Below are positions 15,561-43,493 of a stretch of 64,000 bases of DNA, piece by piece. Where the stretch lies: assembly GCF_037042905.1 (NCBI RefSeq), contig NC_087250.1, positions 8,186,001 through 8,250,000 of the forward strand, read 5' to 3'. The first letter of the stretch is position 1. Each line of letters begins with the position of its first letter. The notes under the pieces were generated by a model. It was not told the origin of the DNA. It saw nothing but the letters and a program-made list of their open reading frames with translations, and did not search any database. The position numbers and the translations under genes were made by a program. The stretch comes from Lytechinus pictus (taxonomy: Eukaryota).

Positions 15561-17299
15561 TAATTATCCTTCGCGTGCAGGTTGATTTCAGCCAGCACTC
15601 GGGATAATTTTATATTTGTCGTACATAATTATAATCAAGTAGTATTGTGCACTATTTATACAGAAAATGAAATTTCATTGATTTTTTTAATTCACGTTAC
15701 AGAGAACGCTGCTCAAAAATAATACTAATTAAATAAAGAAATTTCTACTAACTATATTAATGGATGGATTTTCCTCAAACTTTTACCCATTTTTTTCATT
15801 TTTCTGCGATTTTTACACTAAACTTTTTTCAGCGTGAGCTTCCCATTTAAACATGTTCAAATGTGATGAAATGGATATTTAGGTACGTTCCTGCAAAAGA
15901 ACTCAACCTCAAAAGAAAATTGAAATTACGTGTATAATAAGATGGTTTGCCAGATTTTTTTCAGTATGATGTTTCGACTCCTTGATGACCTAAGTTGATC
16001 TCATCCTCCTCTGAGGATTAACATGTGATATCACCCAAAGATTATTTGTACCAAATATGAACACAATTGATGCAGAAATAACGAAATGAGAGCAAGTTAA
16101 AACAAAATTTGTGAGAAAATGGTGCACTATGGCCTCATATAATTCGTCTTTTGACCCTTGGCTGACCTTTGAACAAAATCATCCTCGTGAACGCAAGCAC
16201 AATAGTAGAGCGGATAAGCCGAACAATTGTGCAAATTATGACTAAAGCATGAAACTTTCACAAGTATTAGTATATGCCGTAAGATTTATTTTAAAGATGG
16301 GAGGTAAATTTTTAAATGCCATTTTCGGCCGTTGCCATGGCAACGGAGTAATTTCCCTCTAGAAAGGTAAAAATATTGGTAAAATGTAAAATACATGTAT
16401 GATCATCATTCCATTTTCCCTAATTTTAAGGTACTAATCGAGATATGTTTGTGACTAAATTTATAAATATAACATCTTAAGCCATTGCCATGGCAACCAG
16501 ATAACATCTGATTTAAAAATAAACAACAACATGGATGACAAGGTTATTGACAGGTGAAAAATACAATGAAAAGAAAGTTATTGTACATGCCCGTAAGGTT
16601 TGACCTACTCAATTAATTTAGGGGAAAATAATACAGTGAGTGTTCTGCATGAACTAATTAGAATGATAAACATTGATGTTGCTTTGGTAAAGCTTGAATT
16701 CAACGATAAATATCAATGTTCCAAATGGCCTGTTGCCATAGCAACGGATCATTTACCCAAGAAAAGTACCAGTTTTTATTTTTGAAAAGGACTGTATAAT
16801 CTGATTTTTCTTTCATTTCCCCTAGTTTTAGGGTAAGAATGGATATGTTTGCTGTAAACATGCAAATAACATCTAAAGTCATTGTCATGGCAACCAAATA
16901 ACATCTAATTTGAAAAAAAAATAACATGGTTGACATGATAATGGACAGGTGGAAAATGCAATTTATAACAATTAACTCAAGGTTTGACCCAGTCATTTAA
17001 TTTTGAACAAAGATTACAGTGTTTCGCATAAGTTCATTAGAATGATGAAATTTGAGGTTGCCTTGGTAATGCTTGGATTTAATGATAAATATCAATGCTG
17101 TATATGGCCCGTTGCCATGGCAACGACTCTTTTTTTCCCAAGAAAAGTACAAAATTTGATCGAAAAACAGTTTAGAATCTGCATTTTGTCATATAAAATT
17201 TGCCCTAATTTTAGGGTGCAAAGCATAAATAATTATCTTTGCTGTTGATATACAAATAACTTAAGCCATTGCCATGACAACCAAATAACATCTAATTTC

Positions 17300-19880
17300 A
17301 GTGGCTTAATTTGGTTTCTATGCAATGGTTTTAAGGGTACATTGGGACTAGTTACAAGGACAGCCAGTGGTCTGATGTGTCCAAAACCCTAAGACGGCTT
17401 CCAAAAATGGAGTTTGAAATGGCTGTTGATATATAAATGGACCGTCATTTCATATCCGTCTGGGATATATGATTTTGGTGTCTAGACCATGGTTTCAATT
17501 GTCAAATAATACACTTTGGCAAGTTAGACGGACAGTCAGTTGTCCAGTATATCAAAAAAATCCAAGATGGCTTCCAAAAATGGGGTCTAAAATTGCTGTT
17601 GCTGCATTAAAAAACGTAGTTTGTCTAATATGTTTATGCCATGGTTAAATGGGTCAAAGAATACATTAGGACAAGTTACAAGGACAGTCAATGGTCAAGT
17701 ATGTCCAAAAATCCAAGGTGGCTTCCAAAAATGGAATATAAAATAGTCCCTGTTACTAACATATGGACATATTTCGTGTAATATCTGCCAAGGGCATATT
17801 ATTTTTATATCTAAACCATGGTTTTAAAAGTCAGTAAATACACCATGTACATTGGAACAAGTTACAAGGACAGTCAGTAATCCAGTATGTCTAAACATCG
17901 AAGATGGCTTCTAACAATTGGAGTCTAATCGGAGTCTGTTACTTAAAAATTGACATAGTTCATTTAAAATCCACCACGGAAAAATTATTTTGGTGTTCAC
18001 ACTTTGGTTTCAAGGTTTAAAAAAATACCTTTAGACTGGTTACAATGATATCCAGTTGTCTAAAATGACTTCTATCACTCAAAAATTATCAGAGTTCATA
18101 CAACATCCACCTTTGAGAAACATTTTTGGTGTCTACACTGTGGTATGAGGGGTCCACTATTTATAGGACAAGTAACAAGGATGGTTAGTTTTCAATTTTG
18201 TCCAAACTCCAAGGTAGATTCTAAAATTACATAAAAATTGGTGCTGTTACTAACTCTAATCTGCTTGCATTTTGAATGTAGGCACCAAAATTACTTCTCA
18301 CAACTGGATATTATATCTACTTCAAAGAAACAACCGTCATTTTAGAACCCATTTATGGAAGCAATCTTGGATTCTCAGGCAAAATGGAAAATTGTAACCA
18401 GTCCCAAAGTATCATTTGATCCTTAAAACCCTATAGTGTAGACACAAAAATAACATCCCCATGTGTATTTTTAATGTACTATGTCCACTTTTAAGTAACA
18501 TTAAAACCCCAATTTTCAAGCCATCTTTGAGTTTTTTGGACACAATAATGACACCTGACTGTCCTTTCAACTTAACGAAATGTACAGTGTTATTTGACCC
18601 TTTAAACAACTAGTGTAGCCACCAAAACCATATCCTTAATGTACATGTATATTATTAATGAAGTATATGTCCATATTGAAGTACCAACAGTCAATTTAGA
18701 CCCCATTTAGAGGCCATCTTTGATTTTTTTACATACCAGTCCACTGACTGTCCTTGTAACTTTTTCTAATGCATTAAACCATGGTTTTATGATTATGGTT
18801 TAGACATTAAAATCATATTCCCCAGACAGATATTGAACAAACTATGTTCTAGTTTATAATTTGACTCTTGAAACGATGGTTTGGACACTAAAGGCAGATA
18901 TAGAATGAGCTATGTCAATTTTTAACAACAGTCAATTTTAGACCCCATTTTTGTAAGCCATCTTGCCTTTTTTAACATACCAGACCACTGACTCTCCTTG
19001 TAACTTGTCCTAATGCATCACTTGACCCTTTAAACTATGGTTTAGACACCAAAATCATATTCCCAGACAGATATTGAACAAACTATGTTTATTTGTAAGC
19101 AACATTAGACATTGTTTTATACCTTTTTTGAAGCCATCTTGGAATTTTGGACATACTAGACCACTGACTGTCCGTGTAGCTTGTCCTAATGTATTATTAG
19201 CCTTTGAAATCGTAGTTAAGACATCATATCTCAAAGGTGAATATAAAATGAGCTATTACACTTTTAAGTATCAGCAGCCATTTTAGAATCATTTTTGGAA
19301 GCCATATTGGATTTTCGGACATACCTGACTGTCGTTGTAACTTGTCCTAATATTATTAGACTCTTGAAATCAATGATTTAGACACCAAAATCACATCCCC
19401 AGGCCGATATGAAATGAGCTACGTCCGCTTTAGGTATCAGCAACCATTTTAGATTCAATTTTTTGAAGCCATCTTAGGTTTTTGGACATTCTCTAGACCA
19501 CTGGCTGTCCCTGTAACCATAGGCGGCGGGGAGGACGGGGGCACCTGTCCCCCCTAAATTTGAGGTGGGGGGGGGGGGGGCGGTCCCCCTAAATGTTTAG
19601 TTGAGAACCTTTTTTTTTTTTTACTTTTCATTTTTTTTCCTGCATACCCCCTAAATTCAGGTGGACCCCCCTAAATATGTTATTGTCCCCCCTAAAATTT
19701 TGGTTGATAACCTTTTTTTTTTTTTTTTTTTGCTTGTCAATTTTTTTACCTGTGTCCATCCCAAAATTTCAGGTGGACCCCCCCTTAATTTTTTCCTTCC
19801 GCCGCCAATGCCTGTAACTTGGCCCAATGTACTACTTGATCCTTAAAACCAATGAATAGAAACCATTTAAAATAAAGCCA
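17300..19880. repeat. Foldback array of ~120-bp tandem units in two inverted arms
   Basis: Units with tccaagatggcttccaaaaatgg on the left arm and the reverse complement (gaagccatcttgg) on the right arm; turn near 18250-18320. Confidence 0.75.
19518..19810. mobile_element. hAT-like G/C-tract MITE, 8-bp TSD
   Basis: CATAGGCGGCGG...CCGCCGCCAATG; TSD CCTGTAAC; same family at 43494-43701 and ~10855-11038. Confidence 0.8.
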
Positions 19881-22604
19881 TTTTATCAAGTAATTGATGA
19901 ATTGTGGATTTTTAGCCTACGGCAGCCAGTGAGGGCACCATCTTGGATTTTTCTGTTACCCTGGAGTGCTTAAATTATTTTCAACCTTTCAACCAGTATT
20001 AAGGGTATTTAAATAAATTTAAATATTTTAATAAGTCTACTTATGTAAAATAACCAGTGAATAGATTACACTTCATGTTGAATATATTCATAATTATGTT
20101 ACTTTAAAAATTATCACAGTATTTCAAAATCAGTAGTGTAATTTTGAGGGGTCAGATATGACGTATCGAGCAAAATTTATTTTAAAAAGTTGTCAGCAAG
20201 CCCAGCGAAAGAGTAAAACTTTCGAAATTGTTCATAACAAAAATAAGATTTTGAAAAATATTTTCGGTATAGTATTGGTAAAATGATTATATTTCGTCCA
20301 TCTCCTTTTCACTTTTCTTTATTTTTTTCTTGGTAATTATTTTTTTTGGGGGGAGTAGGGTTGCAAAATTCCCGGGAATTCTCTTGATGGAAACTTTAAA
20401 CGGGAATTTTGTGGGAATTTTTTTAATTTTCTGCAATTTTCAGGAATTTTCAAGAAATGATGTGAATTTTCAAAAAGTAACAATTTTCTGATATCTATAT
20501 GCAGAAATTGAAAGGCGTACCCTGGCAGATGATGCTTGATAGTGCTTTGCCATCAAATTTCATGCCAAGTATTATGCTTAAACAGCTGACTGTTTATACA
20601 AGGCATAATTTTAATGATTTCCATGTAAAAGTTGATTTACTGTATTTACTTTGATTAGGAGTTCAAGACCATGTCAACTCCTGTTGTCAAATAGACTTAA
20701 GATTTTGATTTATCAACGCCTATAATCCCCTTATATATTGATATGATGAACGGCTTTAAAGCACAATTCACCCCAAGACGCTTTCTTCAAAATGGCCGCC
20801 TGCGAATACTTTGAATGAAATTGTCCAGCATCGAAAGTTTCGGGAATTTATTTAAGCCCCAAAAAGTCTGAAATGATTTTTGTAGGTCTTATTTCGATGC
20901 CATGTATAATGAAATAAGATGGTGCTTATCATTTAGCATATTTATGTTCAGCACCCTCAAATAAGTGTAAAGGAAATAAAATTAACATATTTTTATCAAC
21001 ATTTGTACCTTTCTGGGGCCGTTGGCAACATTGATATTTATCATTATTAGTCCAGGATAGGCCCCATAGAGAAGGGGTCGAACCTTGTTTTTTTATATAT
21101 ACAATGTTTTTTAACGGTTTTATGTCAATTCGAGGGTGCTGATTCCGAATCTGAATGATGCCACTCGCGTAACCTTGAGCGTTTTCCGCAAATTGGCAAA
21201 ATCCAAGATGGCCGCCCAAAATAGGTTTTGGGCCATGATAGTCATTAAAGTTCACATTTTATGACCTTAAAATGTTTCTAAATGTGATGTATGCCTGTAG
21301 CAATATCTGAAAATTATTTCTTACCTAATATTAGTAATTTTTCATGGTAAAAAATTATCTTTTTGCCTTTCAAAATGGCCGCCATTCATGTAATTTGAAA
21401 CATTATGAATTGGAAAATTAATATGTGAAGAAAGCTTAGGGCAACGTCACAGGGTGCGCATATTTATTAATGAAAACACTAAACAATAATCAAAAGGAAA
21501 CAAAAAATATACTATTTACTTACCTTTTGGATAATAAATTCAATATTTAATGAAATGAACTGGAAAGCCCGTAGGCATATCTGTGGTATATATTTAAAGA
21601 TACTTTGTAATTATCCAAACCTTTAATGCTAATGGGTAAAAGACCACACGCCGCCTCGTGATTGTATTCCACAAATTCAATTGAAATAAAAAAAATTATG
21701 TACAAAGCAAACACATAGGCAACTGATCACAGCTTAAATGGCCATAATCAGCTTAAATGGCAATAATTTGTAACAATATAGCTGCCTTTTCAGCTTACCT
21801 GTATACCCATTAACTGGCACGCGACTTGGTATGCAGCATCTTAGAACTGACCCAGGGTTACGTTAATGAGGTAAGTTGAGATATTTTCTTAATGTTCTTT
21901 GAAGAAAAAATCTAATAAATAGGGATTTTAACTCAAATATATGAAACAACTATTCACTAAAACTGTGTATGGCCTACCTAATATACAGACCCACATACTC
22001 ATTAGATTGTGGCTAATGATGACATTGATAAGTTGACAAATAAGACTGCATCATCGTATATTTTTCAGTGCAGTAGATTGTTTTATATAATGGCCATGTT
22101 GTGGTTGATAACTGCTCTACTTTGTCCCCTCATACAGATATATACTTACCGTAAAGTGGTATTAACAAGATTATCATTATACCTTTAATTCGATTTGGTC
22201 AAAAGTGATGGTTATAGCAGATTGTTCAGACCAGGGAACAAAATAAAAAGAAAAAAAAGAAGGCACGGCACTTTGGATTAAAAAAATGGCATTTGAGAAG
22301 CAAAACATTTGAAATCAAAATTCTTATGATCATTTATTTAAAGGAAGTAAGCTTTTTTCAGCCTGACTTTTATGATAATGGATGGCTTCATTTTGTGGAA
22401 TGGTGTATAATATTTAACTTCTTCCAATATTTTTTTGGGTCGGAATTCCCTGAATTGCTATACTACAATCTGATATATTCAATATTCAACCCTAATATTT
22501 CATCAGACATCCTATGCTCCTTTTAAAATCTGCGATTTTATTTCTACGGCATTTTCTAAACCATTTGTGCTTATTTTATTCCATATGCCGAAGCAGAACA
22601 TTTC

Positions 22605-22607
<3 letters not shown>

Positions 22608-22685
<78 letters not shown>

Positions 22686-22686
22686 T
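22608..22686. repeat. (TA)n microsatellite
   Basis: ~40 TA units upstream of the transposase acceptor at 22790. Confidence 0.95.
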
Positions 22687-22803
22687 GTTTACGGCAATGG
22701 GGGAGGTAGCGTCCACTTTGGAAGGATAAAATTTGAAATAAATGAACAATCAGAGTTCTTGATATTTTGATGTTTTCAATACCCCTCCAGCTTACCTGGG
22801 ACG

Positions 22804-25800
22804 ATGGCAGAGGTTTGCATTATATGCCAGATGAGTGGGGAGAAGCCACTCACCTTGTCTTCGAGAGTAGCAAGTTTTCGAAGTGCAAGTCGCCAAAGAG
22901 GTGATGGATTAAGTGATTGCCTCCTTGAAGATACCACATCATTCAGATGTCACCGGGACTGCATTAGTACCTACTGTTCTAAAAACCACATCAAAAGGTA
23001 TTTGAACAAATTGAAAAGGAATATACCACCACATCATTATAATAGTCCCAAACGACTGAGAAGGAATTCAGGTGAATTTGATTTCCTACAACACTGTATT
23101 TTCTGTGGTGATGAATGTGACATCAAGCGTCCTCATAAAAATCCTGGTCGTTGGAGACAGTCTTACTTGTGTAAAACTGCAAACGGAAAAGATAATTTAT
23201 CATGGAAAGACAGCATCCTGGAACGTGGCAAAAACCGTGGCGACAAGTGGGGCAGGGATGTCATTTTCAGAATAAGTTCTGTTTTAAGTGAGCTACATGC
23301 AGCAAAGGCGCGCTACCACAAAGACTGTATGACGAAGTTTTTCAGTAATGCACCCCCTAAAACGAAGACTGTGTCTGACACAGCGCTTGAAGGACTTAAG
23401 ACTGAAATGCTGTCTGATCGCTCACGAATTTGGAATAGCATTGAACTATACAATCTTTATCAGGAGTTGGGTGGAACTCGACTATCACGACGTTTGCTCA
23501 TTAACCACCTGGAAGCTGCTCTACATCCTGATATACTAATCCTGTCATCACCAGGTGTTTCATCAATATTTGCATTCAGGAGCAAGGCAGCAACACGTCT
23601 CCGGATAGAAGATGATTTTGAGGATGAATGCCTGGGGAGGGATATCTCAAATCTTGGGAGGAAAATCAGAACCGAATGTCTTAACCATCGTCCTGATCCT
23701 AACACATACCCAATCAGGTTAACCAGGGACTTTGTCTTAGGTGAGTCGGGATGGAATACTTAAATATAGTGTTGCATTTAATGCTCACACACTTCTTGTC
23801 ATCGTCCAACCTTGCAATTATCTTTATAGGGATGTGTCTCATAAAATTTCCAAAAGTTGTTCTATACTCACCCTTTTTCAGTCTTTGCGCCTCAAAACGT
23901 AAATTCTTAAATTTTTCTTTCTTTCTAACGTTGTATCAGTTAAATCTTTGGATTAAACCCTTTGCTTACCTTATCCTCTTCTTTCTCCAGCTGGATGCAG
24001 TGAAACGATATTGGCTCTACTAGCTGAGATCGACCTGCAGTTGGATTCTTCCTTACAAGCTATGATGATAAGCAATATCATTCTTGGTGTCGTTTGTGGT
24101 CAAGCAACACCGCTTCAACTTGGACTGAGTACAATGCTAAATAAACAGCGAGGCATTATAGAGCAGTTATACAACTATGGTGTGACATCTTCCTACAACG
24201 AAATGCGCCGCTTCAGGATCTCTGCTGCTGCTTCTATCGCAAAGGATAGACGAGGGATGTCAGAATTTGATAGCCGAAACGGGTTAGTTCAGGTTGTCGC
24301 TGATAACTTTGATGCTAACATTTCATCCCCCAATGGTCAGAAAACAACGCATGGTCTAGCCATGGTGATTACCCAAAATGGAAAACGAAAACACATTCCA
24401 TCTCAAGATGACAAAGATGTGCCTACCATAACAAGAAAGAAATGGGATCAGATAAAAGCAGCAAATTTGTAGTTAGGAGAGGTCAGTCTACAGCGTAGCC
24501 GAGGAAACAAAAAAGCTGAGATGCCAAATGAGTGTGCCCACAGATGTGTACCAAGGCTCTCATTTCTTGCCAGTATGCAGCTCTCCAAGATGAAAGCCGA
24601 GTCCAATGACATGGCTTTTCTCCATTCGGTAACAAGCGATGATAAATGTCCGGAGTACGGAGGTTTCAATACCAAGCATGCACGTGAGTCTGGGGAGGAG
24701 CCAAAGGCCAAGACAAGAGTGGCCTACACTCCATTTCTAGACATGACACCTGCCGAACCTGACACAATGAAAACAGCAATGGTTCAAGCACAATATTTAA
24801 CGTCATTGACAAGACAAGAGCTTACGATCATGACATGTGACCAGCAACTCTACCAGGTGGCAGTCAACTTAACCTGGAGCAACAAGACCCTCTTTGGAAA
24901 GTTCATTCCCAGACTCGGCGGCATGCACATGCTGATGAGCTTCATTGGAAGCATAGGGTCTTTGATGTCAGGAAGTGGGCTAGAGGATATTTTGAAATCA
25001 ACGTTCGCAGGAGTTCCAAAACTTCTGTCTGGAAAAAAGTTCCCTCAGAACTTTAGAGCACTTCGACTGCTTGTAGAGGAGATCCTAAGACCAATATTGA
25101 ATGGCCATCAATTCAGAGATATCGATGAATTGATTGATACCATCGGAAAACTCAGCAGGACAACCAAACTGTGGATCGACTGTCTTGTGAAGCCCATAAT
25201 GATCTGTATGGCTTTTGTGAGGGCTGAGAGGGAATCTGACTGGTCTCTACACCTGCTTGCAGTTGAAAAAATGCTACCATACTTCTTCGCATCTGGACAC
25301 ATCAACTACGCCCGCTATGGATTGTACTACTTCCGATCCATGCAGCGTCTCCCCCCTGCATTATTTAAGCAGTTCATGGACGGAGAGCACACTATGCGGC
25401 ACCAAGATGGCCTGTGGAATGGCATCTGGTCTGATATGTTCATTGAGACAACATACATGCGACATGGTAAGGGACCGGCTGGCATTATTGGATCGACTTT
25501 GAATGAGGCAACTGTTACCATATGGGCTTTGTCTCTCAGTGTGCTTGGACAACTGAAGGATGATCTGGCAGCAATGCAAGAGGAAAGAGAGCAAGAATTA
25601 ATGTCTCACAAAGAAGAAAGTCTTACGAGGATAAGATCTGATGCACTTGACAGAATGAAGATACGTGAGGCCTTATCAACTTGGATTGATGTCTTAGACA
25701 GCAAGAAACACCCAACCACAGGCATTGTAAACATCTTCACTGGTCAAGTTGTTGACAATAAAGAGGTCAATGTTGATGATGCAGTCAGAATAGGAACAGA

Positions 25801-27406
25801 TCAAATGGTGCAGTACGAAAGAAAATGGCCAAAAGGGTTTCACGAAACCATAAAGAAAAGGGTGAAAGTGATGTCAAAGGCTTCACCGACAGCAAAGGGG
25901 CAGGGCACATCTCAAATTGTGAATACAGAAATGATCTATGCACGAGTAATCGGAATCTTGGCATCATCAAGAGTCTCAATCTCAACAGACACTTTGTTTT
26001 CGTACGAATTGGCCCGCTACCCACCAGCACTATTTGATGGGAATGGTGATGCACGTTCCACAAGCAAGTCTGTTCTGAAGGACAGGATCAAAGTGGAAAG
26101 TGGTTTGCGTAGTTCAGCAGTTCCTGAAGTCATAATTCTAGATGGTTGTGCTCTTCTGTGGACTGTTCCTTGGCCTAGTTCTCCCGCAAAGGTGTCCGAC
26201 TTCGTTGATGCTGCAGTATGTATCATCATGAGATACGTCGAATTTTCATCAGTTCTTCATGTGGTGTTTGACAGGTATTATGAGAACAGCATCAAGTCAT
26301 GTTGCCGTACATCACGCGCAAAGGGATTCACCCGTGTATATAGGCTCATCCCCGAGTCCCCTCTACCTAAACAGAACATCGTCCTAAACATCTCTGCAAA
26401 CAAGGAACAGATTATAAAGCTGATTGTTGACCAGTTGTGCAACCAACGAGTACCAGAGGACAAGAAGGTAGTTGTGACAGGACCGGATCCACACCCGATA
26501 TATGTTGGCATTGGAGTACTACCAGAAGCAGTGACACATGAAGAGGCTGATGTTATAATGGCTTACCACATGATAAAGGAGGTTAATAATGGACACACAA
26601 GTGTTAAAGTTGTGTGTGACGACACCGATGTTCTCGTCATACTTGCACATCATTTGTTTTTCCAAACGAATGGTTTGTCACGCAAGGTAAAATTGGTGAT
26701 GGAGTCATGTTCAAGTAAACGAACAGTCATCGACGTCAATGAGGTAATCTCGAAACATGAGAAAATCATGCCCAATCTTCTTGCTGCACACGCTCTGACC
26801 GGATGTGACACTGTGTCATGCTTTTCAGGTGTGGGAAAGGCTTCAGCACTGAAAGCTTTAGAGTCGTATTCTGACACTCTCCTTCTGGGAGATCCAGCAG
26901 TGGCACTTGATGAGGTAGTACATTCTTCCTTGAAATATGTATCTTTACTTTACAGAGTGGATTATCAAGACACTCTTGACACAGCACGCAAGAAATTTTT
27001 TGCAAAGAAAGCTGGTGGAAAGCGTCACCTACCACCGAAGCTGAGCAGCCTTCCACCTACCATGGCTGCGTTTCGACCACATTGTCAGCGTGCCAGCTAT
27101 CAAGTAGCCTTATGGATGGCTGCTGGCAACCCTGAACCTCCAAATTTAGATCCTAGTCTGAACGGTTGGTCAATGAAGGGATCGTCTCTTCAACCCATCT
27201 ACCTGGCAAATGATCATCCAGTGGCTCCTGACGAGGTTCTTAACATCATCAGGTGTGGCTGCAAGGGGGACTGTAGTTCTGCAATGTGTAGCTGCACCAA
27301 GTCATCTTTAGCCTGCACTGAATTCTGTCATTGTAGAGCTGATCTTCGGTGTCAGAACCCAATGAAAACGACTTCAGAAGATGGAGAAAGCGAAAACTCC
27401 GAATAA
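22804..27406 (+). CDS. Academ transposase (~1450 aa; DDE domain + XPG/PIN-like nuclease + C-terminal Cys8/CXC), 2 coding exons, one in-frame stop
   Basis: Exons 22804-23740 (G|gtgagt) and 23991-27406 (ctccag|), phase 1. Motifs VADNFD, TCDQQLY, LGGMH, GHINYARYG, SDMFIE; PIN motifs DGCALL, VFDRY, HEEAD, DDTDV, LTGCDTVS..G.GK; CGCKGDCSSAMCSC...CTEFCHC. TAG at 24470-24472 with the frame continuing to 24521. Confidence 0.88.
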
Positions 27407-29953: not shown

Positions 29954-32484
29954 TTCATTTAATTTTATTGTATTTTCCGCCTGTCCGTTATCTTGTCAGC
30001 CATGTTATTTTTGGTAAAATTAAATGTTATTTTATTGCCATGGCAATGCCTTGAGATGTTATTTATACATTTAACAACAAACATGTACGTGTATGTTTGG
30101 CACCCTAAACTTAGTGGAAATGAATGAAAAATAAGATTCTACAATGTACTTTTTTATCAAAGATGGTATTTTCTGGGGAATAAAATGATCCGTTGCCATG
30201 GCAACAGAACACACATTTGCAAACATTGATATCATTATATTCAAGCATTACCAAGGCAACATAAGTTTTTTATCATGCTAATGATCTCATGAGGAACACT
30301 TACTGTAATTTTTGTTCAAAACTTCATGACTGGTCAAACCTTATGTAGATTAAGTAAATCTTTACTTTACATTCCACCTGTCCATTATCATTTCAACTGT
30401 GTTATTTTTTTAATTGTATCTTAATTGGTTGCCATGGCAATGGCAGAAGATGTTATTTATATATTAACTGCAAGCATATATATGCTTAGCACCCTAACAT
30501 TAGGGGAAATGAAAAAAAATCTGATTTTACAATGTTTTTGTTTATCAAAGCTGATACTTTTCTGGGGGGGGGGGGGGAAATGAGCTGTTGCCATAGCAAC
30601 GGGACATATGAAACACTAATATTTATCATCAAATTCAAGTATTACCAAGGCAACATAATTTTATTATTCTAATGAACTCATGCAGAACACTTACTTAAAT
30701 TTTTGTTCAAAATTAAATGACTGGCCAAACCTTTCGCTTATTGAGTTATTTATAATTGTATTTTCCACCTGTCCATAATCTTGTCATCCAAATTATTGTT
30801 ATTTTTTGTAAATTAGATATTATTTGGTTGCCATGGCAATAGCTTCAGATGTTATTTATACATTTTGCATCAAACATATCTATGTTTAGCACACTAAGAT
30901 TAGGGGAAATGCAAGAAAAATCAGATTCTACAGTCCCTTTTTTTAATCAAAACTGGTACTAAATGATCCGTTGCTATGGCAACAGGCCATTTGGAACATT
31001 GATATTTATCGTTGAATTCAAGTATTACCAAGGCAACATCAATGTTTATCATTCTAATCAGTTCATGCAGAACACTCACTATATTATTTTCCCCTAAATT
31101 AATTGAGTAGGTCAAACCTTACGCATGTACATTAAGTTAATTTTCATTGCATTTTTTTACCTGTCCATAACCTTGTCATCAATGTTGTTGTTTTTTTAAA
31201 TTAGATGTTATCTGGTTGCCATGGCAATGACTCAAGATGATATATATTTATAAATTTAGTCACAAACAAATCTCGATTAGTACCTTAAAATTAGGGAAAA
31301 TGGAATGATGATCATACATGTATTCTACATTTCTATCAATATTTTTACCTTTCTAGAGGGAAATAAGCTGTTGCCATGGCAACAGGCCTTGTGAAAAATT
31401 GTTTCTTTTTAAATTTAATTCAAGCATTACCAAGGCAACATAATTTTTTATCTTTATAAAGGACTCCTGCAGAACACTTCCTGTATTTTTGGTTCAAATG
31501 AGGGGGTCAAAACTTAAGCATACAGATTAAGTCAATTCTAATTGTATTTTCCACCTGTCCATTGTCCAATTGGAGCTATCTTGGTGATCTTGAATATCTG
31601 TAAATTTCATATGTATTCAATTGGAAGCCTGAAAGTTATCATTTTGGTCATCTATATCATGTTTATTTACCATTTACATGGGAATGTATGTAATTTTGGA
31701 GAAATTAATCCGTTGCCATGGCAACGGCCGAAAATGGCATTTAAAAATTTACCTCCCATCTTTAAAATAAATCTCACGGCATATACTTTTACTTGTGAAA
31801 GTTTCATGCTTTAGTCAAAATTTGCACAATTGTTGTGATTTTGGAGCTTATCCGCTCTACTACAAGTGGTATTATACCCAATTAGGGAAAATTTGAACAA
31901 AATTTATCAACGCAGAAATAAAGAAATGAGACCAAGTTGAACAAAAACTGTAATATTATTGTAACACCAGCAGACTAACAGGAAAAGTCTTTACTCGGTC
32001 CAGGTCCTCTCACGCCCCTGCTAGATCGATCCTATATAGGAATAGCCTCTGCCAACCTTCTTTATAGCGAGACAAAAATGTCATAAAAATGAATTTGCCA
32101 GTTATTAAAACTTGATTAAATTCATATGAGGCAATACCCAAATTTTAGTCTTATTTATATGAAAATAAAACAAAGGATATACAAAAATGAAGAGTTAAAT
32201 TGGTAAAGTGAGTCTTTATTTCTTTGTCTTGCCTGAACAAAATTTGCCAAGAGAGCTAACGTAATAATCATCTTTGATCTATAGTCTCTTGGTCTGTTAC
32301 AAATGTTTTTATCAGGGCCCTATACTGTGGAACAATCTCTCTGTTAAACTTCAGACAGCAAAGACATGTAAACTTTTCAACTTTAATTACAAACGACATT
32401 TACTTTACACTCAGCAACCCCTTTCTCTTGACAAATAATCATAGCCTCTCTGTTTCTTTCCTCCTTCTTTCCTGTCCTGTCTTA

Positions 32485-35400
32485 TAGTCTGGTCTGTTAG
32501 CGAAATTATGTGGACACGGTGGACAAAAGCGTGATTTTTTCTCCAGACCTTTGTTTGTGTATAAGAGTTAAGAATGGGGTATGCTCCAAAAAATCTGGCT
32601 GCAGGAACAGAGAAAAAATGGGTGAAAATGTCAGAATTTATGAGTTTAGATTGGTCTGATATATAGACTAGCGCTAGTGCAAAACTCAATAGCAGTGCAT
32701 TATTTTGCATTGGATTAGTTCTTGAATTCAGACCCTTTTTGAACAGATCTTCTGCTTGTCCTCACATCTCAATGCACCAAATATCTGAAAGCAGATGCTA
32801 AACAAGCCGAAGGGTGACGGTGGAGGGGGTTGAATGTTGGTGTGTATGTACATATTTTGGTCTTGGGGTAAAGATGTGCAATACATATTTTTTTTGCATG
32901 TGTTGGAAATTGTGTTGCCATGGTAACAGTGTATCATTGCAAAAATAAGGTAAAAATCTTGCAGTTAGAACTACTTCCTCTGTTTTCATCCGATTCTCAT
33001 GAAATTTGGCACACACATTGGTCTTGAGGTGAAGATGTCTAAGATACATATTTGTGTGTCTTTCAGAAATCTTGTTGCCATGGTAACAACATATCATATG
33101 GTGAAAATTGGGAAAAAAACTTACAATTCAAACTGCTTCATCAGTTTTCAATCAATTCTCATGAAATTTGGCACAAACATTGGTATTGAAGTAAAGATGT
33201 ACAAGGCACTTTTTGTGTGTGTTTCATAAATTGTGTTGCCATGGTAACAACATATTATATGGCAAAATTTAGGTAAAAAACTTGCAATTTGAACTACTTC
33301 ATCAGTTTTGAGCCAATTCTCATGAAATTTGGCTCACACATTGGCCTTGGGGTAAAGATGAGCAAGAACCTTTTTTTTGCATTTGTCAGAGAGTGCATTG
33401 CCAGGGTAGCCACATATGATAGCCAGAAATGCAGGAAAAACTCATTGTGGATCAAACTACTTCCCCTGTTTTTAGTCAGTGCTCATTAAAGTTGGAAAAA
33501 ATATTAATCTTGGGGTAAAGATTCATATTAAATTCTAAATGTCTTCGGTGCATTAAAATGTTCACGCCAGAGTGTGGGGGTATTAATCACCTTCATTAAT
33601 ATTTCTAGGTTGTGGGGGGAGGGGCGGGATTGGTCCTTAAAATCTGACATCAAAATAAAGAAGGTTAAAGGCGGTGGCCATTAGAAATATAAAAATGATA
33701 AACACTCTTAAAAAACGCATCCCCTCAAGGCATAGGCTGGAGGTACACTGGGTGAATGTGAAACCTTCCGCTGAGGCAGAGGAGTTCCAACACTGGCAAG
33801 CAAAATGAAATGTGCACCCCTTCTACTTTCAACAGCTGATTTTCCAAACCTTAGTTCCACCTCATCAAGATGTTCACCCCTCCCCATACCACTTTTAGTT
33901 CTACATCCCCATACTCAAACCAGTCTACACCTTTGCCCCTCAGGTGTCTTTGCATTTTTAAAGCTAGACATTACTCTTTTTTGTGGGGGGGAGGTCTTTA
34001 GAAAATGACCTCATAAAATTTAAAGGATTATGACTAGGAACTTAATCCCCCCCCCCCCGAAAAAATAGGGGCTGATTTATTTTTTTAGCAGAAAATACCC
34101 CCCCCCTTTAAAAGACCATTCATTTGAAGTTTAGTGCATTCTGATTTGATAAAAAATTGTTAACGGTACCCAATTAACCATTGTAACCATTATTCTCCTA
34201 CTCAGTCTTTTATTCATATTCCGTTCCTACTCTTTCTTTTTAACTTTTAAATCACTCTTGATTTTGAGCTTCACCATACTATCTCCTTATGTTTCCTCTC
34301 TCTCTCCAAGTATATTTTTTCTGACATATTTTAAAGTGTACCTTTAATCATGCAACTAATTATAGAAAAGCAAATATATACAAAAATCTCTGCCCTTGTT
34401 TTAGAAATTCACTTGCAAATCCATGACTTAATAACATACCTTATCAAAAATATACATATGTGCACAATAAATGTTAGCCTTCTATTTTCTTTCATTTAAT
34501 TTTTTCAGTTTATTTCTGTGACAGCCCCTGCTTTATACATCCTACATCTCTCATTGTCAAAAAATGAATATTATGTTTCAGTAGCAAAATTGTTGGATGC
34601 AAACTCTGACTGTCATAAAAACAAATTGGAGTAAAGCCAAACTTTACATAAGGGATATGACTAGAATATAATTATATGTAGAGAAACTTTTCTTTCTCTA
34701 CATATAGTGATATCACTTTCAGAAGGTGGTTACTGCAGGAATGGGAAAACTCAGTGATAAAACTAAAATTTTCGGAAAATAACTACATCCATTTTTGTCA
34801 AGCAACAGTTATTCAATTCTGAATGCTACATGTACAACCTTGTTAATATGAATTTGATGTACCTTTACCAAAATATAATATCATGACAGTCATTTCTTCA
34901 ATTTTTTAAAGTAGACATTAAATATTGCTAATAGTATCGACAGAGTGTAGCCAAAATGGAGTTTAAAAGATTATGAAGAACAAAAAATAAATGTCATGCT
35001 ATTATATTTCAAAGCAGAATGTTTTAGGCTTTACTTTAATACGCTGAAGTGTAAAGGATTTTTCTCCCCCTTTTTTTTTTTTGGGGGGGGATTAAGTTCC
35101 TAGTCGTAATAATTTCCTTTTACTCTTTATGTGGCCCCCAAAAAAAAATTGGAAGGGGTGTTTTTTTAAGAGTGTTTAATTTCCTAATGGTCATGGCCTT
35201 TAACCGTCTATATTTTTATGTTGTCAGTTTTTAAGGACCTTCTCCGCACCCAAAAAAGAACCTATAAATAATATTGAAGGTGATTAATACCCTGCGCTAT
35301 TGTATGATGTTATAAAGGGGAATCCAACCCAAATAAACACTTGTTTTAAGAGGAAAATGAAAAATCAGACAAGTTAATAGGTCAAAGTTTGAACAATATC

Positions 35401-36975
35401 GGACAAACCATAAGAAAGTTGTGAATATATAAAAGTTGTAAACATTGGTAATCGCTGTACCCATGAAGACTTCAAATTGACCGCGTATGTGATGTCATAG
35501 TGATGTAAGGCAAGGACCACTCTTCCATGTACTGGAATAATTAATTGGCTAAAATTTAATTTTTTCAAAAGTTTTACTTCAAATTATATCTTTCTTTCAT
35601 GAGGACATAAAACATACTACCAGGTTTATATTACAGCCCAATGGAATACGGATTTAGGAGAAAACCAAAAATCTTGATAACTAAGTACTAGTCTTATGGG
35701 AAAGTTGTCCTTGCGGCCTCACCCCTTGTCATAATTTACTTACCCAGTTGCCAATTTGAATTCTACATACTAGTAGCCTTAGGGATCTTAATTTGAAAGC
35801 AGCCATAACTTTATTTTGCTTGTCCGATTTCTTTCAAACTTTCACCATTCTTCTTTTTCTCCTTTTCATGCACACAACATTATGACCAAGGCTGGATTCC
35901 CTTTTAACACTGAATATGAATCTTTACCCAAAATGAATATTTGTGTCAACTTTTATGAGCACAGGCTGAAAACTGAGAAGCAGATTGATCCACAGTGAGT
36001 TTTCCCCATATTTCTGGCTATATGTGGTTACCAAGGCAATGCACTCTCTGACAAATGCAAAAAAAAAAGGTTCTTGCACATCTTTACCTCAAGGCCAATG
36101 TGTGAGCCATAATTATTTCATGAGAATTGGTTCAAAACAAAAAAATTATGAAGTAATTCAAATTGCAAGGTTTTTACCTAAATTTTGCCATATAATATGT
36201 TGTTACCATGGCAACACAATTAATGAAACACACACAAAAAGTGCCTTGTACATCTTTACTTCTATACTAATGTGTGTGCCAAATTTCATGAGAATTGATT
36301 GAAAACTGATGAAGCAGTTTGAATTGTAAGTTTTTTTCCCAATTTTCACCATATGATATGTTGTTACCATGGCAACAAGATTTCTGAAAGACACACAAAT
36401 ATGTATCTTAGACATCTTCACCTCAAGACCAATGTGTGTGCCAAATTTCATGAGAATCGGATGAAAACAGAGGAAGTAGTTCTAACTGCAAGATTTTTAC
36501 CTTATTTTTGCAATGATACACTGTTACCATGGCAACACAATTTCCAACACATGCAAAAAAAATATGTATTGCACATCTTTACCCCAAGACCAAAATATGT
36601 ACATACACACCAACATTCAACCCCCTCCACCGTCACCTTTCGGCTTGTTTAGCATCTGCTTTCAGATATTTGGTGCATTGAGATGCGAGGACAAGCAGAA
36701 GATCTGTTCAAAAAGGGTCTGACTTCAAGAACTAATCCAATGCAAAATAATGCACTGCTATTGAGTTTTGCACTAGCGCTAGTCTATATATCAGACCAAT
36801 CTAAACTCATAAATTCTGACATTTTCACCCATTTTTTCTCTGTTCCTGCAGCCAGATTTTTTGGAGCATACCCCATTCTTAACTCTTATACATAAACAAA
36901 GGTCTGGAGAAAAAATCATGCTTTTGTCCATCGTGTCCACAAGTAGGGCATTTTTGACGCTAACAGACCGGACTA
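32485..36975. mobile_element. Non-autonomous Academ-type element with >1-kb near-perfect inverted arms
   Basis: TAGTCTGGTCTGTTAGCG...CGCTAACAGACCGGACTA, TSD TTA (32482-32484, 36976-36978); mirrored ORF-track entries (32798-33097 minus vs 36353-36652 plus). Confidence 0.88.
35316..35903. mobile_element. Kolobok-like MITE inserted in the right arm of the 32485 element
   Basis: AGGGGAATCCA...TGGATTCCCTT flanked by ATAA/TTAA; absent from the mirror arm. Confidence 0.6.
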
Positions 36976-39149
36976 TTATGCCATATTAGTCCAGGAAAAA
37001 TAACTGATTTTGGGGGTAAACCGCAAACAAATTGCAATAGAATTTTTTTTACCACAATGCATTTTCTTGAAGTCCCCAAAATGACATACTAAAAGTCCAG
37101 AAAAATCCCAGTAGTGGAAAGACGTCTAATTTGCATAAATCCAAAATGGCCGCCAAATTTTCAGAAAATTTGAATTTTCGTACATAGATTTTGACATGAA
37201 CATGTAATTGCCACAAAATTAGTGTCATATGAAAGAGAAATAAATTTCCTACAATTTGGTACTATTTATAGGGGATAAAAAGATAATTTGGCTGAGATTT
37301 TTTAGTAGAAAACTGCATTTTTGTCATTTTTTCCCAAAAATTGAAAATTTTGAAAATACATGATTTTACATAAATCTGAGAAAAATTAAGCAATTACCTT
37401 GAAATCTTTCAGAAAACTTTATTGATATACTATTATCATGTGGATGCAATTCTAAATTGGTGTCATTCTTTTTAACAAATTTATAAGGTATCAAAGTTGA
37501 ATATTCAAATTTTACAAATGTCGTTTTTGTATGCATTTTCGTAGACTAATATGTATAAAGTGTAGAGTACAGTAGTGAAAGATTGTATGCATTTATCTGC
37601 ACTTTTTAACCGCTTAGTTAAGATTAGGCTTTTCTTTATCAGCTACATAAAAAGGCAGGTACATTGACGCCTACCCCTCTCAGGGGGCTGTCAAAGTCAC
37701 GCCCGCTGGCTATATCATGCTGTACAGTGTGTATCAAAATAAACGCAACCACATTTCATTCCAAATTTGTGAAAAATATGTTAGCTTTAAAGTCTCGGAA
37801 AAATTACTGATTTAGGGGGTCAACCTCAAACAAATTGCACAATAATTTTTGTACTGCAATGCTTTCCCTTGATGTCCCCAAAAGTTCATACTAAAAGTGT
37901 TTTTAAAATCCATGTAGTGGAAAGACGTCTTATTTGCATAAATCCAAAATGGCGGCCATCGCAAGAATTTTCAGTAATGTTTACTTATAGTAGTACAAAC
38001 ACTTGTCTGATCATAGCACTTTAAAAAGTTATGATTAAAGCATTTACCTTTCACCAGTGTTATATCTTACCATAGGCTTTGTCTTAAAATTAGAATGCAA
38101 GTCAGATTTGGCCTCTGCTGACCTCTAGAGGTCAATGACCTCAAGGTCAACGACCTCAAAATATCGGAAAATTAATGTTTTGCATCATTAGCTCATGATA
38201 AATGTAATAATAATGCACACACAATTATTATTTAATATTGACTTTCAAGGTAACCTGATATTCTGGAAAGAATTTTGTGTATTAAAAATGTTGACCTTTG
38301 ACCCTGGAGCAATGGAAAAGGTCAATTACCTTAACATATTACAATATTGATACTTAGCATCAGTGGTTTATGATAAACAGGCCTCTCGTGAAAAAAAAAT
38401 ACAATACAATTTATTTCAGCACAATGCATTTCCATGAAGTCTCCAAAATGGCATACTAAGAGTCCAGAAAAATCCATGTAGTGTAAAGACATCTAGTTTT
38501 TGCATAAATCCAAAATGGGGGCCACCGTGAGAATTTTACATTTTTACAAATAATGGTAAAAACACTGGTCTGATCATACCACTTAAAAAATAATCATAAA
38601 AGCATTTAACTTTCACCATAGGCTTCATTTTAAAATTCCAATGCAATTCAGATTTGACCTCTCCTGACCTTTTGAGGACAATGACCTTAAGGCCAATGAC
38701 TTAAAAATATTGATGTTTTGCATCCAGAGTTCTTGATTAGCATCATGTTATATCAACTTGTGTTTGAAATTTGAGGATCTCAAAAGAAATTTGACCTTAA
38801 ATGTAAAAATATTGGTACTCGGCATCACTGGATGATATGATAATGTTTTGAGGTAATTGACTTTTCACTTTCCTCAGTAGTCAAAATGTTGAGATCTGCA
38901 ATCTTTACCCAAATGGTCTGTTTAAAATAACAAAACTATATCATATGTATAGTTGTAAGTTTGTAACTCTAGGGGCACGTTTCATAAAGAGTAACTTTGC
39001 CATTATGGCAACTACCATGGCATTAGGGTTCAGCAGCAAATCAAAATCAAGGTTACCATGGTAGTTGTCATAATGGCAACGTTGCAACATTTGTAACTCT
39101 TTATGAAACGGGTCCCATGTCTTTTTTGGCTAGTACATTCTGAATGAGG

Positions 39150-40370
39150 TTAGAGCATTGGGAGGTATTGAAATGATATCTGAAATGCCTCAATTATTTT
39201 TTTGCACTTATCATCTATGTATACTTCCCGAGAGACTTGCAAGTTTTCCCATCTAGATTGTAACCTGGTGTAGTTGCTCATTAGAAGGGAGATGCAGCTT
39301 ACCACGATGCTGGTTGGCACTGCACTTCTCTTCCCATAACTTGCATAATGGTGACTCTGTCAGTGGTTTCACAGAATTAAAAATATGTTTCCTAGATTTT
39401 AGGCTTTTTCAGCTAGTTTGGCATCATAGATTTGATGGACGCTATATCTTCGCTGAGAGCTCTGTGGTCTAGCTACTGGTCTGCGTATATCAGATGGGCA
39501 ATTACCTGACAGGAAATACAGACCCTTCACATTGTTTTGGCTTTAGATAGTTTGTGATAGTCCCACAAGTGTTGTCTAGAGGAAGATGTGTCCAAGACAG
39601 CACATGCACACTCTGTAGCAGAGTATTGGTGGAGGAGTTTGTCAGTTCCGGAGAAGGTTATTATGGATCCTCACTTTCCACCTTCACTCTAAATGTGACT
39701 GATCAAGGTTGACAACAAGATATATTGCATGGTCGCAGTGCTGGAATGGAATTAAAACTATAGGTTGTTTTGAGTTTCCTCAAAGCATGAGGATTGTGGG
39801 TATGAAACAAGCCAACCTTGGTCTTTGGGTTTGAAGACTGGACTCAAGCAAGAACAAGCTACCCTGAGAGAGTCAGTTCTTTTGAATTCTTTACCTGCTG
39901 GTCTTCCTGTTGAGCTCCATAAAGAGATGTCTGTTTTCTAGTAGAAGTTTGATGACTTTGGTCAGATGAATGTCATCAATGATTTGTATAGTTGTACGGG
40001 TAGACCACAGTATCAGATGCAGCTGCTAATTCAACAATTTTCTACACCAGTTAGTTAGTTACCGTATCAAATCGGAAGTCCTCAGTGAACTGAGTCTGGT
40101 TGAGAACCTAGCCTGTATATTATTTCCAAAGTTAAGAACCAGCCTGGTTAGGAATATGATATGTTGTTCTATAATGGGACCATTTTTTTTTAGGATGAGA
40201 TGCTCAAGTAGCTTGTAGAGATATCAGAAAAGGGTGATTGGCCTGTAGCTTTTAGGCACATTTGGATCTTTCCCAGGTTTGAGGAAGTACTTCAGCCTTC
40301 CTCAAAATTTCTGGGAGATTTGTGTAGCACATTGTTAAACAGGCTGACAAGCTATTCTGAAGTATGGAAG
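39150..40370 (-). pseudogene. Degraded non-LTR reverse transcriptase fragment (Ingi/Vingi-like)
   Basis: Minus-strand LKPGKDPNVPKSYRPIT..YLYKLLEHLIL, QAG and SQGS remnants with stops and frameshifts. Confidence 0.55.
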
Positions 40371-40374
40371 CTTA

Positions 40375-40890
40375 AGATGTTCATATAATCATCTCGTCAT
40401 GTCTACATCTCTTAAGGAAAAGAGATAAGATGACGAAATCTCGGATCTCGTCATGTCTACATCCTGTGTGAGAGATGATCAGATGGCAAGATCTTGGATC
40501 TCGTCATGTCTACATCCTGTGGGAGAGATGACCAGATGACATGATCTGTGATCTCATCATGTCAACATCTTTTAGAAGAGATGACCAGATTTGTGATCTC
40601 GTCATTTCTACATCTTTTAGAAAAGATGATCAGATGGCAAGATCTTGGATCTCGTCATGTCTACATCCTGTAAGAGAGATGATCGCTGACAAGATCTGGG
40701 ATCTCGTCATGTCTACAACTCTTAGGGAAAAGGATAAGATGACAATATGATCATCTCTCCCACAGGAAGTAAAAAATGACGAGATCCAAGATTTTGCCAT
40801 CTGATCATCTCTCACACAGGATGTAGACATGACGAAATCTAAGATATTGCCATCTTATCCTTTTCCGTATGCGGACATGACGAGAAATCG
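40375..40890. repeat. Foldback element with tandem gatctcgtcatgtctacatc subrepeats
   Basis: TIR agatgttcatataatcatctc / gagatgattaaatgaacatct; ~8 forward and ~3 inverted subunits. Confidence 0.7.
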
Positions 40891-43493
40891 GAGATGATTA
40901 AATGAACATCTGGGCGGCAGATCAAAATGTTTCATTTACTCAGAGTGGTGTCACCGAAGCGTGCTACCTTTCCCTTTTTTGTTCCTTCAATTTCAATATC
41001 CAGGTGAAGTCTCAATTGGACTGGTCCCATGGAAGATATCCACATAGTAAACTAGTTAAGTTTAATATTCTAAATGAATTGACCTTTGAAAGTTTCAGGG
41101 TCAAAGGTCACAACTTTTAATACTCGCAAATTTTCTCATTTATCAAGGGGCCTTATAAGTTAACGAATTGTTTTGATGAAAACATAATTTTTTATGATAT
41201 TCCGACTTCAATTATCATTGCCTCTAGAGTTCAGCACAGGTCAATTCTAAATTGCATCCGATTTTTAAAATGAAACCTAGATGATAAAATATAACAGTGA
41301 TGAAAGTTTACGCTTTAATCATATTCTTAGTGTTATGATCAGACCAGTATTTGTACTACTACGATTAATCATATTTGATCACTTTTGATGCCAATAAGAC
41401 GCTTTTCCACCACTTGGATTTTTCTGGACTTTTAATATATCATTTTGGAGACTTCATGGAGATGCAATGTGTTGAAAGGAATAGTATTACAATTTTTACA
41501 CATTGAGGCCTGTTTATCATATATGCTTAGCGTCAATATTCCAAAATGTTAAGGCCATTGACCCTTTCTAGCTCTCCAGTTTTCAAAGTTCAAAGTTTAT
41601 AACCCACCAAATTATTTTTAAAATACCAGCCAATACCTCGGAAGTCAATATTGAATAATTTTGTTTTCATTATTACTATTTTTATCATGAGCTAATGATG
41701 CAAAACATTTTTTTTTAAAATATATTTTGAGGTCATTGACCTTAAGGTATTTGACATCTAGAGATCAGCAGAGGTCAAATCGGACTTCCATTCATTTTTT
41801 TAAATGAAGCATATGGTAAGATATAACACTGATGAAAGTTCAATGCTTCAATAATAATTTTTAAAAGTGCTATGATCAGACCAGTGCTTGTACTAATAAT
41901 CATAAAAAGTTTTCATGATGGTCGCCATTTTGGATTTATGCAAATTAGACGTCTTTCCACTACATGGATTTTTCTGGACTTTTAGTATGTCATTTTGGCA
42001 ATTTCATGGAAATACATCGTGCTCAAATAATTGCAATTTTTACACTAGAAGCCTGTTCATAAATCGGAGATGCTACTTGTCAATATTCTAAGATGTTAAG
42101 GTCATTGACCTTTTCCAGCTCTCCAAGGTCAAAGGTCAAGATTTATGACCCACCAAATTCTTTCTAAAGTATCAAGATACCTTGAAAGTCAATATTGAAT
42201 CATTTGTTTTCATTATAACCATATTTATTATTTACTAATGATGCAAAACATCAATTTGCTGATATTTAGAGGTCATTGACCTCTAGAGGTCAGCGGAGGT
42301 CAAATATGACTTTCTTCTGATTTCAAAATGAAGCCTATGGTAAGATATAACACTGGTAAAAGTTTCATGCTTTTATCATAATTTTTGAAAGTGCTATGAT
42401 CAGAACAATGTTTGTACTACTATCAATAACCATCAAAAATTCTTACGGTAGCCGCCATTTTGGATTTATGCAAATTAGACATCTTTCCACTACATGGATT
42501 TTTCTGGACTTTTAGTATGTCATTTTGGTAAATTCATGGAAATGCATCGTGCTCAAATTAATTGTATTGCAATTTTTACACTAGAAGCTTGTTCATAAAT
42601 CCGAGATGCTACTTGTCAATATTCTAAGATGTTAAGGTCATTGACCTTTTCCAGCTCTCCAGGGTCAAAGGTCAAGACTTAAAACCCACCAAATTCTTTC
42701 TAAAATATCAAGATACCTTGAAAGTCAATATTGAATCATTTTGTTTTCATTATAACCATATTTATTATTTATTAATGATGCAAAGCATCAATTTTCTTAT
42801 ATTTAGAGGTCATTGACCTTAAGGTCATTGACCTCTAGAGGTCAGCGGAGGTTAAATGCGACTTGTATTCTGATTTTAAAATTAAGCCTATGGTAATATA
42901 TAACATTGGTAAAAGTTTCATGCTTTTATCATAATTTTTGAAAGTGCTATGATCAGAACAATGTTTGTACTACTATCAATAATCATCAAAAATTCTTACG
43001 GTAGCCGCCATTTTGGATTTATGCAAATTAGACATCTTTCCACTAAATGGATTTTTCTGGACTTTTAGTATGTCATTTTGGGGACTTCATGGAAATGCAT
43101 TGCGTTGAAAAAAATTATATTGCAATTTGTTTGCGGTCAAACCTTATTTTTCCTGGACTATATGGATGCATTTTAATGATTATGTATTTATTATGTTTTA
43201 TGTATTATGTTTTATGTATTACGTACTATGTGCGCTTATGAATATTATTTTGGGCCATCCAAACAAGCCTGATGAGCTTTCATTTGGTCCACCACTATTT
43301 TAAAATGAACTTGTATATTGCTTTGTATATATTTTAATTTTGTGGAAATAAATGAAATGAAAAAAAAAAAAAAAAAAAAAAATGTTAGTTTTGGTTTAAC
43401 TTGCTCTCATGCGTTTCTTTCTTTCTTCTTGCATCAATAATGTGATCTCACTTGGTACAAATGATCCTTGCATGGGTAATTAATACTACATGT

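Follow-up and report, generated by a model that had tools for sequence, protein, structure and literature searches.

The 64,000-nucleotide stretch of Lytechinus pictus contig NC_087250.1 analysed here (assembly GCF_037042905.1, positions 8,186,001 to 8,250,000; hereafter the window, numbered from its first letter) contains four DNA transposons of the Academ superfamily, E1 to E4, whose two ends are unlike in a regular manner. Each end consists of a terminal box and a second, more internal box, and the spacer separating them is longer by 9–11 bp, about one turn of the helix, at one end than at the other. The original prediction had proposed that this difference is not random; it is indeed kept far beyond the window, as all 20 elements for which both ends were found in one locus, representing 15 families, combine a long end with a short end. 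The ends of these elements, which belong to the AcademX lineage, are probably functionally differentiated, with an active paired-end complex composed of one long and one short end. Few superfamilies of eukaryotic DNA transposons have been studied as little as Academ, for which no biochemistry or structure is known to us.

E1 to E4 all start with TAGT and finish with ACTA, and the same 3 bp stands on either side of each element as a target-site duplication (TSD; Table 1). The left and right terminal blocks are identical over 17 nt in E1, 13 nt in E2 and 17 nt in E4, and differ by one mismatch over 18 nt in E3. They are followed by wholly non-matching spacers of 2 and 11 nt in E1, 20 and 9 nt in E2, 6 and 16 nt in E3 and 16 and 6 nt in E4 (left and right, respectively), past which a near-perfect inverted repeat resumes for 134 to 801 nt. 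When the first 260 nt of each left end were aligned, with gaps allowed, to the reverse complement of the right end, no gaps other than those of the spacer block appeared in approximately the first 150 columns of any element; beyond that point indels have been freely gained. Scanning the diagonals with no motif presupposed yielded best offsets of +9, −11, +10 and −10 for E1 to E4, with matches at 56 of 63, 42 of 52, 49 of 63 and 42 of 53 positions, respectively, the maxima obtained from 200 shuffles of the right end being 29–32. The independently found gapless inverted-repeat arms (I8, I1 and I9) begin exactly at the second block. The bipartite ends and spacer lengths originally proposed for the four elements were thus borne out at every coordinate. 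Contigs of four public sequencing runs were also compared with positions 29100–43300: the elements are highly repeated in one of the organisms (organism A), and no spacer indels or loose ends were present among the best-supported matches listed. A contig from the sequencing run of another organism ends exactly at 36975, the right tip of E3.

The same architecture was found in a set of 99 related loci, the proteins of which are 30–57% identical to that of the window. Of these loci, 80 are from metagenomes, being the best of 245 that were confirmed there, and 19 belong to bins with a bacterial label. In all, 68 ends were judged to be termini and were grouped into 44 end-families. Common to the ends are a terminal box with the consensus TAGTCCgGcAGcc, a second box, which reads (A)ACCTTG in the main clade and is a different word in E1 and in E3, and a T-run approximately 25 nt further in. 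Located in part with regular expressions of our own choosing, the ACCTTG-like box starts at position 23–24 in 22 of the 44 end-families and at position 33–35 in 18, and in none of the 44 does a second box lie between positions 25 and 32. The long end of L084 was assigned a second box at position 34 by alignment with its partner, the regular expression having caught an earlier chance word at position 28, and the degenerate end of L091 has its second box at position 36 through a poly-G run. The ends of E4 carry a second box of their own at positions 24 and 34, and the clade of L094, split from the rest with 100/99 support, displays the same 34/24 layout. Two nhmmer profiles recovered short and long ends in equal numbers (37 of each, 74 in total), a count that is partly circular, the profiles having been built from the same ends. 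No relatives were found in the viral contig collection. The contigs with loci L081–L099, which carry animal-type Academ elements, come from bins assigned to Sedimenticola, Desulfobulbaceae and Ekhidna; these bins are contaminated with host (animal) DNA.

The 20 two-ended elements are E1–E4, L010, L012, L020, L025, the five copies of the L038 family (L038, L040, L044, L045 and L049), L052, L070, L081, L084, the two copies of the L032 family (L032 and L033) and L094. The two spacers differ by 10 bp in 11 of them, by 11 bp in eight and by 9 bp in one; the offset at which the terminal inverted repeat resumes, which the original prediction had expected to peak at 9–11 bp, therefore falls within this range in each of the 20. 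Matching 3 bp TSDs flank 15 of the 20, and in 12 of the 19 elements scanned the best offset lies above all 200 shuffles, with L012 and L052 being borderline. A blind scan of the window and the 99 loci, in which TAG-type termini had to be inverted, 60–22,000 bp apart and flanked by an exact 3 bp TSD, returned 12 pairs, each composed of a long and a short end.

Two discrete classes of ends are also present in a published bivalve library of 100 DNA/Academ-1 consensuses (PMC10294476, MOESM31), of which the first 400 nt, and hence the 5′ ends only, were inspected and counted by eye. Within the clade of E1, a AAGCATGAAA-like word starts at positions 41–43 in 13 consensuses and at positions 52–53 in six, with none in between; the ends of E1 itself have it at 43 and 52. 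Within the clade of E4, AAATTG[CA] starts at positions 32–34 in approximately 15 consensuses, at 42–44 in approximately eight and at 57 in a single low-quality one, the ends of E4 having it at 33 and 43. Some near-identical consensuses of this library differ only in carrying the long or the short version (A.marissinica_34 and _58 versus _91; M.edulis_3 versus _4). The published 5′ ends thus fall into two discrete classes about 10 bp apart, in support of the original prediction; one Mytilus clade with a single class is considered below.

The constancy of the spacer length, within ±1 nt despite diverged sequence, the presence of the asymmetry in the non-autonomous elements E1, E3 and E4, and the homogenization of the E3 arms up to the spacer together suggest that the layout is under selection and has its role in transposition itself. 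In E3 the 801 nt arms are 98% alike, yet the 6 and 16 nt spacers have remained unlike. The second box lies approximately 24 nt from the tip at the short end and approximately 34 nt from it at the long end, and because the difference amounts to a whole turn, the two boxes are kept on the same face of the helix at both ends. In the mechanism that we propose, both boxes would be contacted by the transposase or by two DNA-binding parts of it. The T-run of the long spacer may help to bend or to fill the extra turn. We infer that pairing requires unlike ends. A fuller version of this model, in which the AcademX transpososome enforces an unlike-ends rule that is independent of those of RAG/Transib and of the P element, with 24 bp and 34 bp arrangements of its subunits, a bend provided by the T-run similar to that produced by HMGB1, and like-ended elements such as L088:4522-5050 that form and cannot move, is put forward tentatively, its chances being somewhat short of even.

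The long spacer has a sequence character of its own. A T-run of at least four nucleotides is found in 13 of 19 long spacers and in none of 22 short spacers; the long-spacer consensus reads TAGTCCGGCAGccAAAccCnnaTTTTtGg..AACC, and the extra turn usually has the motif AAAC-N3-5-ATTTTT-GG. The long spacers of E1, E3 and L094 have an A-run instead of a T-run and that of E2 has neither, while the sequence of the short spacer is not conserved. A hairpin in the long spacer was considered and rejected: upon DNA folding of eight long and six short ends, only one of the long ends (L084) stood out, with a z score of −2.25, the remainder being within the range of their shuffles.

This conserved motif of the long spacer is what would be expected if the extra turn were a separate functional site, such as a core promoter or leader or a binding site for a regulator or a host protein, without any rule on unlike ends. 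The position of the long end is compatible with such a role: of the 12 families in which a gene and two ends are present, ten have the long end upstream of the transposase gene, although orientation relative to the gene is unreliable in short-read contigs, as L043 and L050 show the same flank on opposite sides. The explanation is the strongest of the alternatives and nevertheless unlikely. E1, E3 and E4, in which a promoter would have nothing to transcribe, still pair a long with a short end; in two families, L070 and L081, which are scattered on the tree, the long end lies downstream; the added length is confined to 9–11 bp, which a promoter would not need; and homogenization of the E3 arms reached the spacer without including it.

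The asymmetry might also be a neutral relic, namely an ancestral 10 bp indel in one end that was passed on without selection. It is against this possibility that the layout has to be judged. According to the original prediction the families are largely unrelated, so that four chance indels of the same size would be unlikely, but this was the wrong null: E2, E3 and E4 have the terminus TAGTCYRG in common, and the termini of E1 and E3 are found in consensuses of the same superfamily. Since the layout was inherited from one ancestor, chance indels are an unsuitable null and ancestral inheritance is the fair one; the proper argument is that spacer length is retained while spacer sequence diverges. 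In favour of a relic, the families are all members of a single superfamily, and each transposition copies the two ends jointly. Its persistence without selection is improbable, given that the spacer sequences have diverged past recognition and their lengths remain within ±1 nt in 44 end-families from elements with proteins as distant as those described above, that indels have been freely gained elsewhere in the repeats, beyond approximately 150 nt, and that the same two classes recur in clades with other box sequences. Chance or an artefact of alignment, suggested by the partial use of self-chosen regular expressions and by nhmmer profiles built from ends that they later found, is very improbable in view of the motif-free diagonal scans, which give the same offsets, of the gapless arms starting at the second box and of the exclusively heterotypic pairs of the blind scan.

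Several observations weigh against a requirement for unlike ends. As both ends are inherited together, the 20 elements do not represent 20 independent trials. The TSD is unconfirmed in five of the 20 pairs, as a consequence of contig ends or collapsed short-read contigs, and for the five copies of the L038 family the evidence for an offset of 10 comes from short motifs, the left and right ends being too weakly similar past the spacer to exceed the shuffles. The upstream bias of the long end would also fit a role in expression. The 5′ ends of the Mytilus clade in the bivalve library form a single class. An unfiltered pattern scan of one 9 Mb bin gave 18 matches compared with 19 for the reversed control, and therefore no overall enrichment; among the 18, the box lies at 23–24 in seven and at 33–34 in four. 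In L043 the spacers of the two sides are both of the long type, the left side lacking a terminal box; it is probably a chimera, considering that it is a short-read contig and has a flank in common with L050. Finally, L088:4522-5050 is a 529 bp element with two identical long-type ends forming a 66 nt perfect repeat. Its termini are TGG instead of TAG, its flanks are unlike (TAT and TTT), it occurs as a single copy in its 9 Mb bin, and the matching end of this family, canonical and of the short type, is present on a related contig. Homotypic elements can therefore arise; that they move does not follow from it.

The assignment of the elements to a lineage is based in part on E2, the only one that codes for a protein: a tblastn search with full-length relatives found no similarity to a transposase elsewhere in E1, nor in E3 or E4. 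Exon 2 of the E2 gene (Table 1) is broken by a single in-frame TAG at 24470–24472. The relatives of the encoded protein number in the hundreds, have approximately 1470 amino acids and are nearly all without a name. Its central part matches DUF6589 only: of 27 members, 10 reach E ≤ 0.01, most of them under the cut-off, and in the Atlas the match extends to 28 of 30 neighbours. We assume DUF6589 to be the core of the Academ transposase, in which the motifs DNFD, CDQQ and SDMFIE appear by eye to be conserved. The 351 C-terminal residues were modelled from an alignment of 30 relatives, with a pLDDT (predicted local distance difference test) of 91.3. A Foldseek search of this model against the PDB returned 79 matches with E ≤ 0.001, led by the T5 flap endonuclease (8e-7) and followed by EXO1 and FEN-1, human EXO1 and archaeal and human FEN-1 being among the top structural matches; the Rad2/XPG core stands lower in the list (6e-5), and TM-scores are moderate (0.4–0.5). 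Columns of acidic residues (Asp/Glu) are invariant in the alignment of this domain, and presumably correspond to the metal-binding positions of the FEN/XPG nuclease family. At the level of sequence the link to nucleases is weak: the Pfam families 5_3_exonuc_N and XPG_I were matched by four and one of the 30 members, respectively, all under the cut-off, a PDB profile search produced a chance match to flagellin alone and no nuclease, no Pfam family reached the cut-off for the open reading frames of the window or for the full-length relatives, and in the Atlas the nuclease part had no more than weak links, to Pox_G5 (0.82) and XPG (0.79). The C-terminus of the protein (27113–27406) is rich in cysteines, some of them invariant; among named Atlas clusters the closest, with a score of 0.89, has the TCR/CXC family in 36% of its members and is to be seen as a lead only.

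AcademX elements are described, in a passage of PMC10045372 citing Kojima 2020, as having TSDs of 3 or 4 bp and an encoded nuclease. Identical 3 bp flanks are found in E1–E4 and in 11 related elements. In the supplement of PMC10294476, as seen by eye in its 5′ ends, DNA/Academ-1 consensuses carry the termini of E1 (TAGTAGAGCGGATAAG.. together with AAGCATGAAACTT), E3 (TAGTCCGGTCTGTTAGC) and E4 (TAGTCCAG.. together with AAATTGCAA). On account of the 3 bp TSDs, of the nuclease with a FEN/XPG fold fused to the transposase and of termini like those of the published Academ-1 consensuses, E1–E4 were classified as AcademX-type cut-and-paste transposons, and nothing contradicts this membership. The relatives analysed here are 5–6 kb long, close to the mean of 5565 bp given for the Academ-1 library in the consulted part of PMC10294476.

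The closest parallels to the arrangement of the ends are found in RAG and its relatives of the Transib superfamily. Both systems have two boxes, a spacer of two discrete lengths approximately one turn apart and one end of each kind per element. They differ in the enzyme, which here has a presumed Academ core (DUF6589) and a FEN/XPG-fold nuclease without any RAG1-like match, in the TSD (3 bp here, 5 bp there) and in the spacers, which are of approximately 9–10 and 19–21 nt here and of 12 and 23 there. In some families of Transib the 5′ end is of the 12-type and the 3′ end of the 23-type (PMC1131882). Most Transib families are symmetric and of the 23-type, whereas every two-ended Academ family in our set is asymmetric. 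RAG together with HMGB1 is reported to bend the long signal (PMC3575807). The spacers of recombination signal sequences (RSSs) have been described as variable, while the long spacer of Academ contains the conserved T-run motif.

In the P element, an internal transposase site likewise lies about one turn further from the terminal repeat at one end than at the other, with spacings of 9 and 21 bp that the authors call `reminiscent' of the 12/23 RSS (PMC7776569). On the other hand, its 31 bp terminal repeats, 8 bp TSDs, THAP-domain transposase and GTP cofactor were not found in the Academ elements analysed here. The ends of piggyBac are also asymmetric, with common short repeats in a different arrangement, and in cells only LE35/RE63 is reported, in the part of the source consulted, to support both excision and integration by the native enzyme (PMC7351741). 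They differ from those of Academ in that the right end has a 17 bp insertion and a duplication and not one clean turn, the target is TTAA, the transposase is of another family and excision is seamless. A description of asymmetric Academ ends was not found in the literature searched, where `academ' also matches `academic' and the listings are noisy, and the scope of which does not include the primary descriptions of Academ. The original suggestion that such ends may be undescribed agrees with this search for Academ and does not extend to the idea, which has precedents in the P element, piggyBac and Transib: the elements are known, and with their proposed end rule a principle already established elsewhere would be met in a new case.

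The insertions in the window are clustered and nested, E3 and E4 adjoining each other and E2 lying inside E1 (Table 1). Only 11 bp separate the right end of E3 from the left end of E4 (36976–36986), made up of the TSD TTA, 5 bp and the TSD TAT. Inside E1, to the right of E2, the segment 29100–30047 is extremely abundant in the contigs of organism A (summed word depth of approximately 1e6) and has an inverted copy near 56.4–56.8 kb (56357–56809); it is probably a very high-copy short repeat. The inverted arms of E3 include, at 32857–33367 and 36150–36544, tandem arrays with a unit of 161–162 nt in 2.5–3.2 copies. The subterminal region of E4 has been copied several times internally (37029–38500 and 41385–43137), the internal copies having no terminal box, and a 53/98/151 nt tandem array occupies 40391–40725. 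Words such as CCAAGATGGCCGCC and AAAATGGCGGCC recur, often several times, in the subterminal regions of many Academ elements, as noted by eye and also in listed repeats and scattered matches; they are found in the window at 21170–21200 and 37140–37165, in many loci and in the published consensuses. Among the related loci, L059:1117-15252 is a perfect inverted duplication of approximately 14 kb, which may have arisen during assembly or may represent a large palindrome. In L081:7668-8134, a second short-type end (TAATCC.., + strand) precedes the long end by 467 bp; this may be a miniature long/short derivative beside or overlapping the autonomous copy, and its flanks are unmatched.

Table 1. Coordinates of the four Academ-type elements of the window, of their ends and of the E2 gene
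Feature	Positions	Strand	Details
E1, non-autonomous Academ-type element, 15.66 kb	16203..31862	.	TSD CAA; E2 nested within
E1 short end	16203..16229	+	Terminal block 16203–16219; 2 nt spacer 16220–16221; second block AACAATTG 16222–16229; inverted-repeat arm from 16222
E1 long end	31827..31862	-	Terminal block 31862–31846; 11 nt spacer 31845–31835 (A-run); second block 31834–31827
E2, autonomous AcademX-type element, 8.24 kb	21048..29290	+	TSD TAT
E2 long end	21048..21087	+	Terminal block 21048–21060; 20 nt spacer 21061–21080; AACCTTG 21081–21087; ACCTTG at position 35
E2 transposase gene	22804..27406	+	Open reading frames, translations, tblastn with full-length relatives
E2 exons (putative)	~22804–23740 and 23991–27406	+	Exons 1 and 2; predicted GT..AG intron at ~23741–23990
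E2 nuclease domain, FEN/XPG fold	26060..27112	+	Predicted structure, Foldseek, invariant Asp/Glu columns
E2 short end	29262..29290	-	Terminal block 29290–29278; 9 nt spacer 29277–29269; AACCTTG 29268–29262; ACCTTG at position 24
E3, non-autonomous element, 4.49 kb	32485..36975	.	TSD TTA; 801 nt inverted arms, 98% alike
E3 short end	32485..32517	+	Terminal block 32485–32502; 6 nt spacer 32503–32508; second block TGTGGACAC 32509–32517
E3 long end	36933..36975	-	Terminal block 36975–36958; 16 nt spacer 36957–36942 (A-run); second block 36941–36933
E4, non-autonomous element, 6.17 kb	36987..43160	.	TSD TAT
E4 long end	36987..37028	+	Terminal block 36987–37003; 16 nt spacer 37004–37019 (GATTTTGGGGG); second block ACCGCAAAC 37020–37028
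E4 short end	43129..43160	-	Terminal block 43160–43144; 6 nt spacer 43143–43138; second block 43137–43129

The conserved pairing of a long with a short end translates into a concrete and testable prediction on the assembly of the synaptic complex of Academ transposons, and names the DNA sites to be used in binding and cleavage assays. It also bears on annotation, as Academ ends are not simple symmetric inverted repeats and the left end can be told from the right with approximately 40 nt of sequence. If true, the requirement for unlike ends would represent another, apparently independent, solution based on one turn of the helix, as in RAG and the P element, and would bear on the ease with which a rule of the 12/23 type can evolve.

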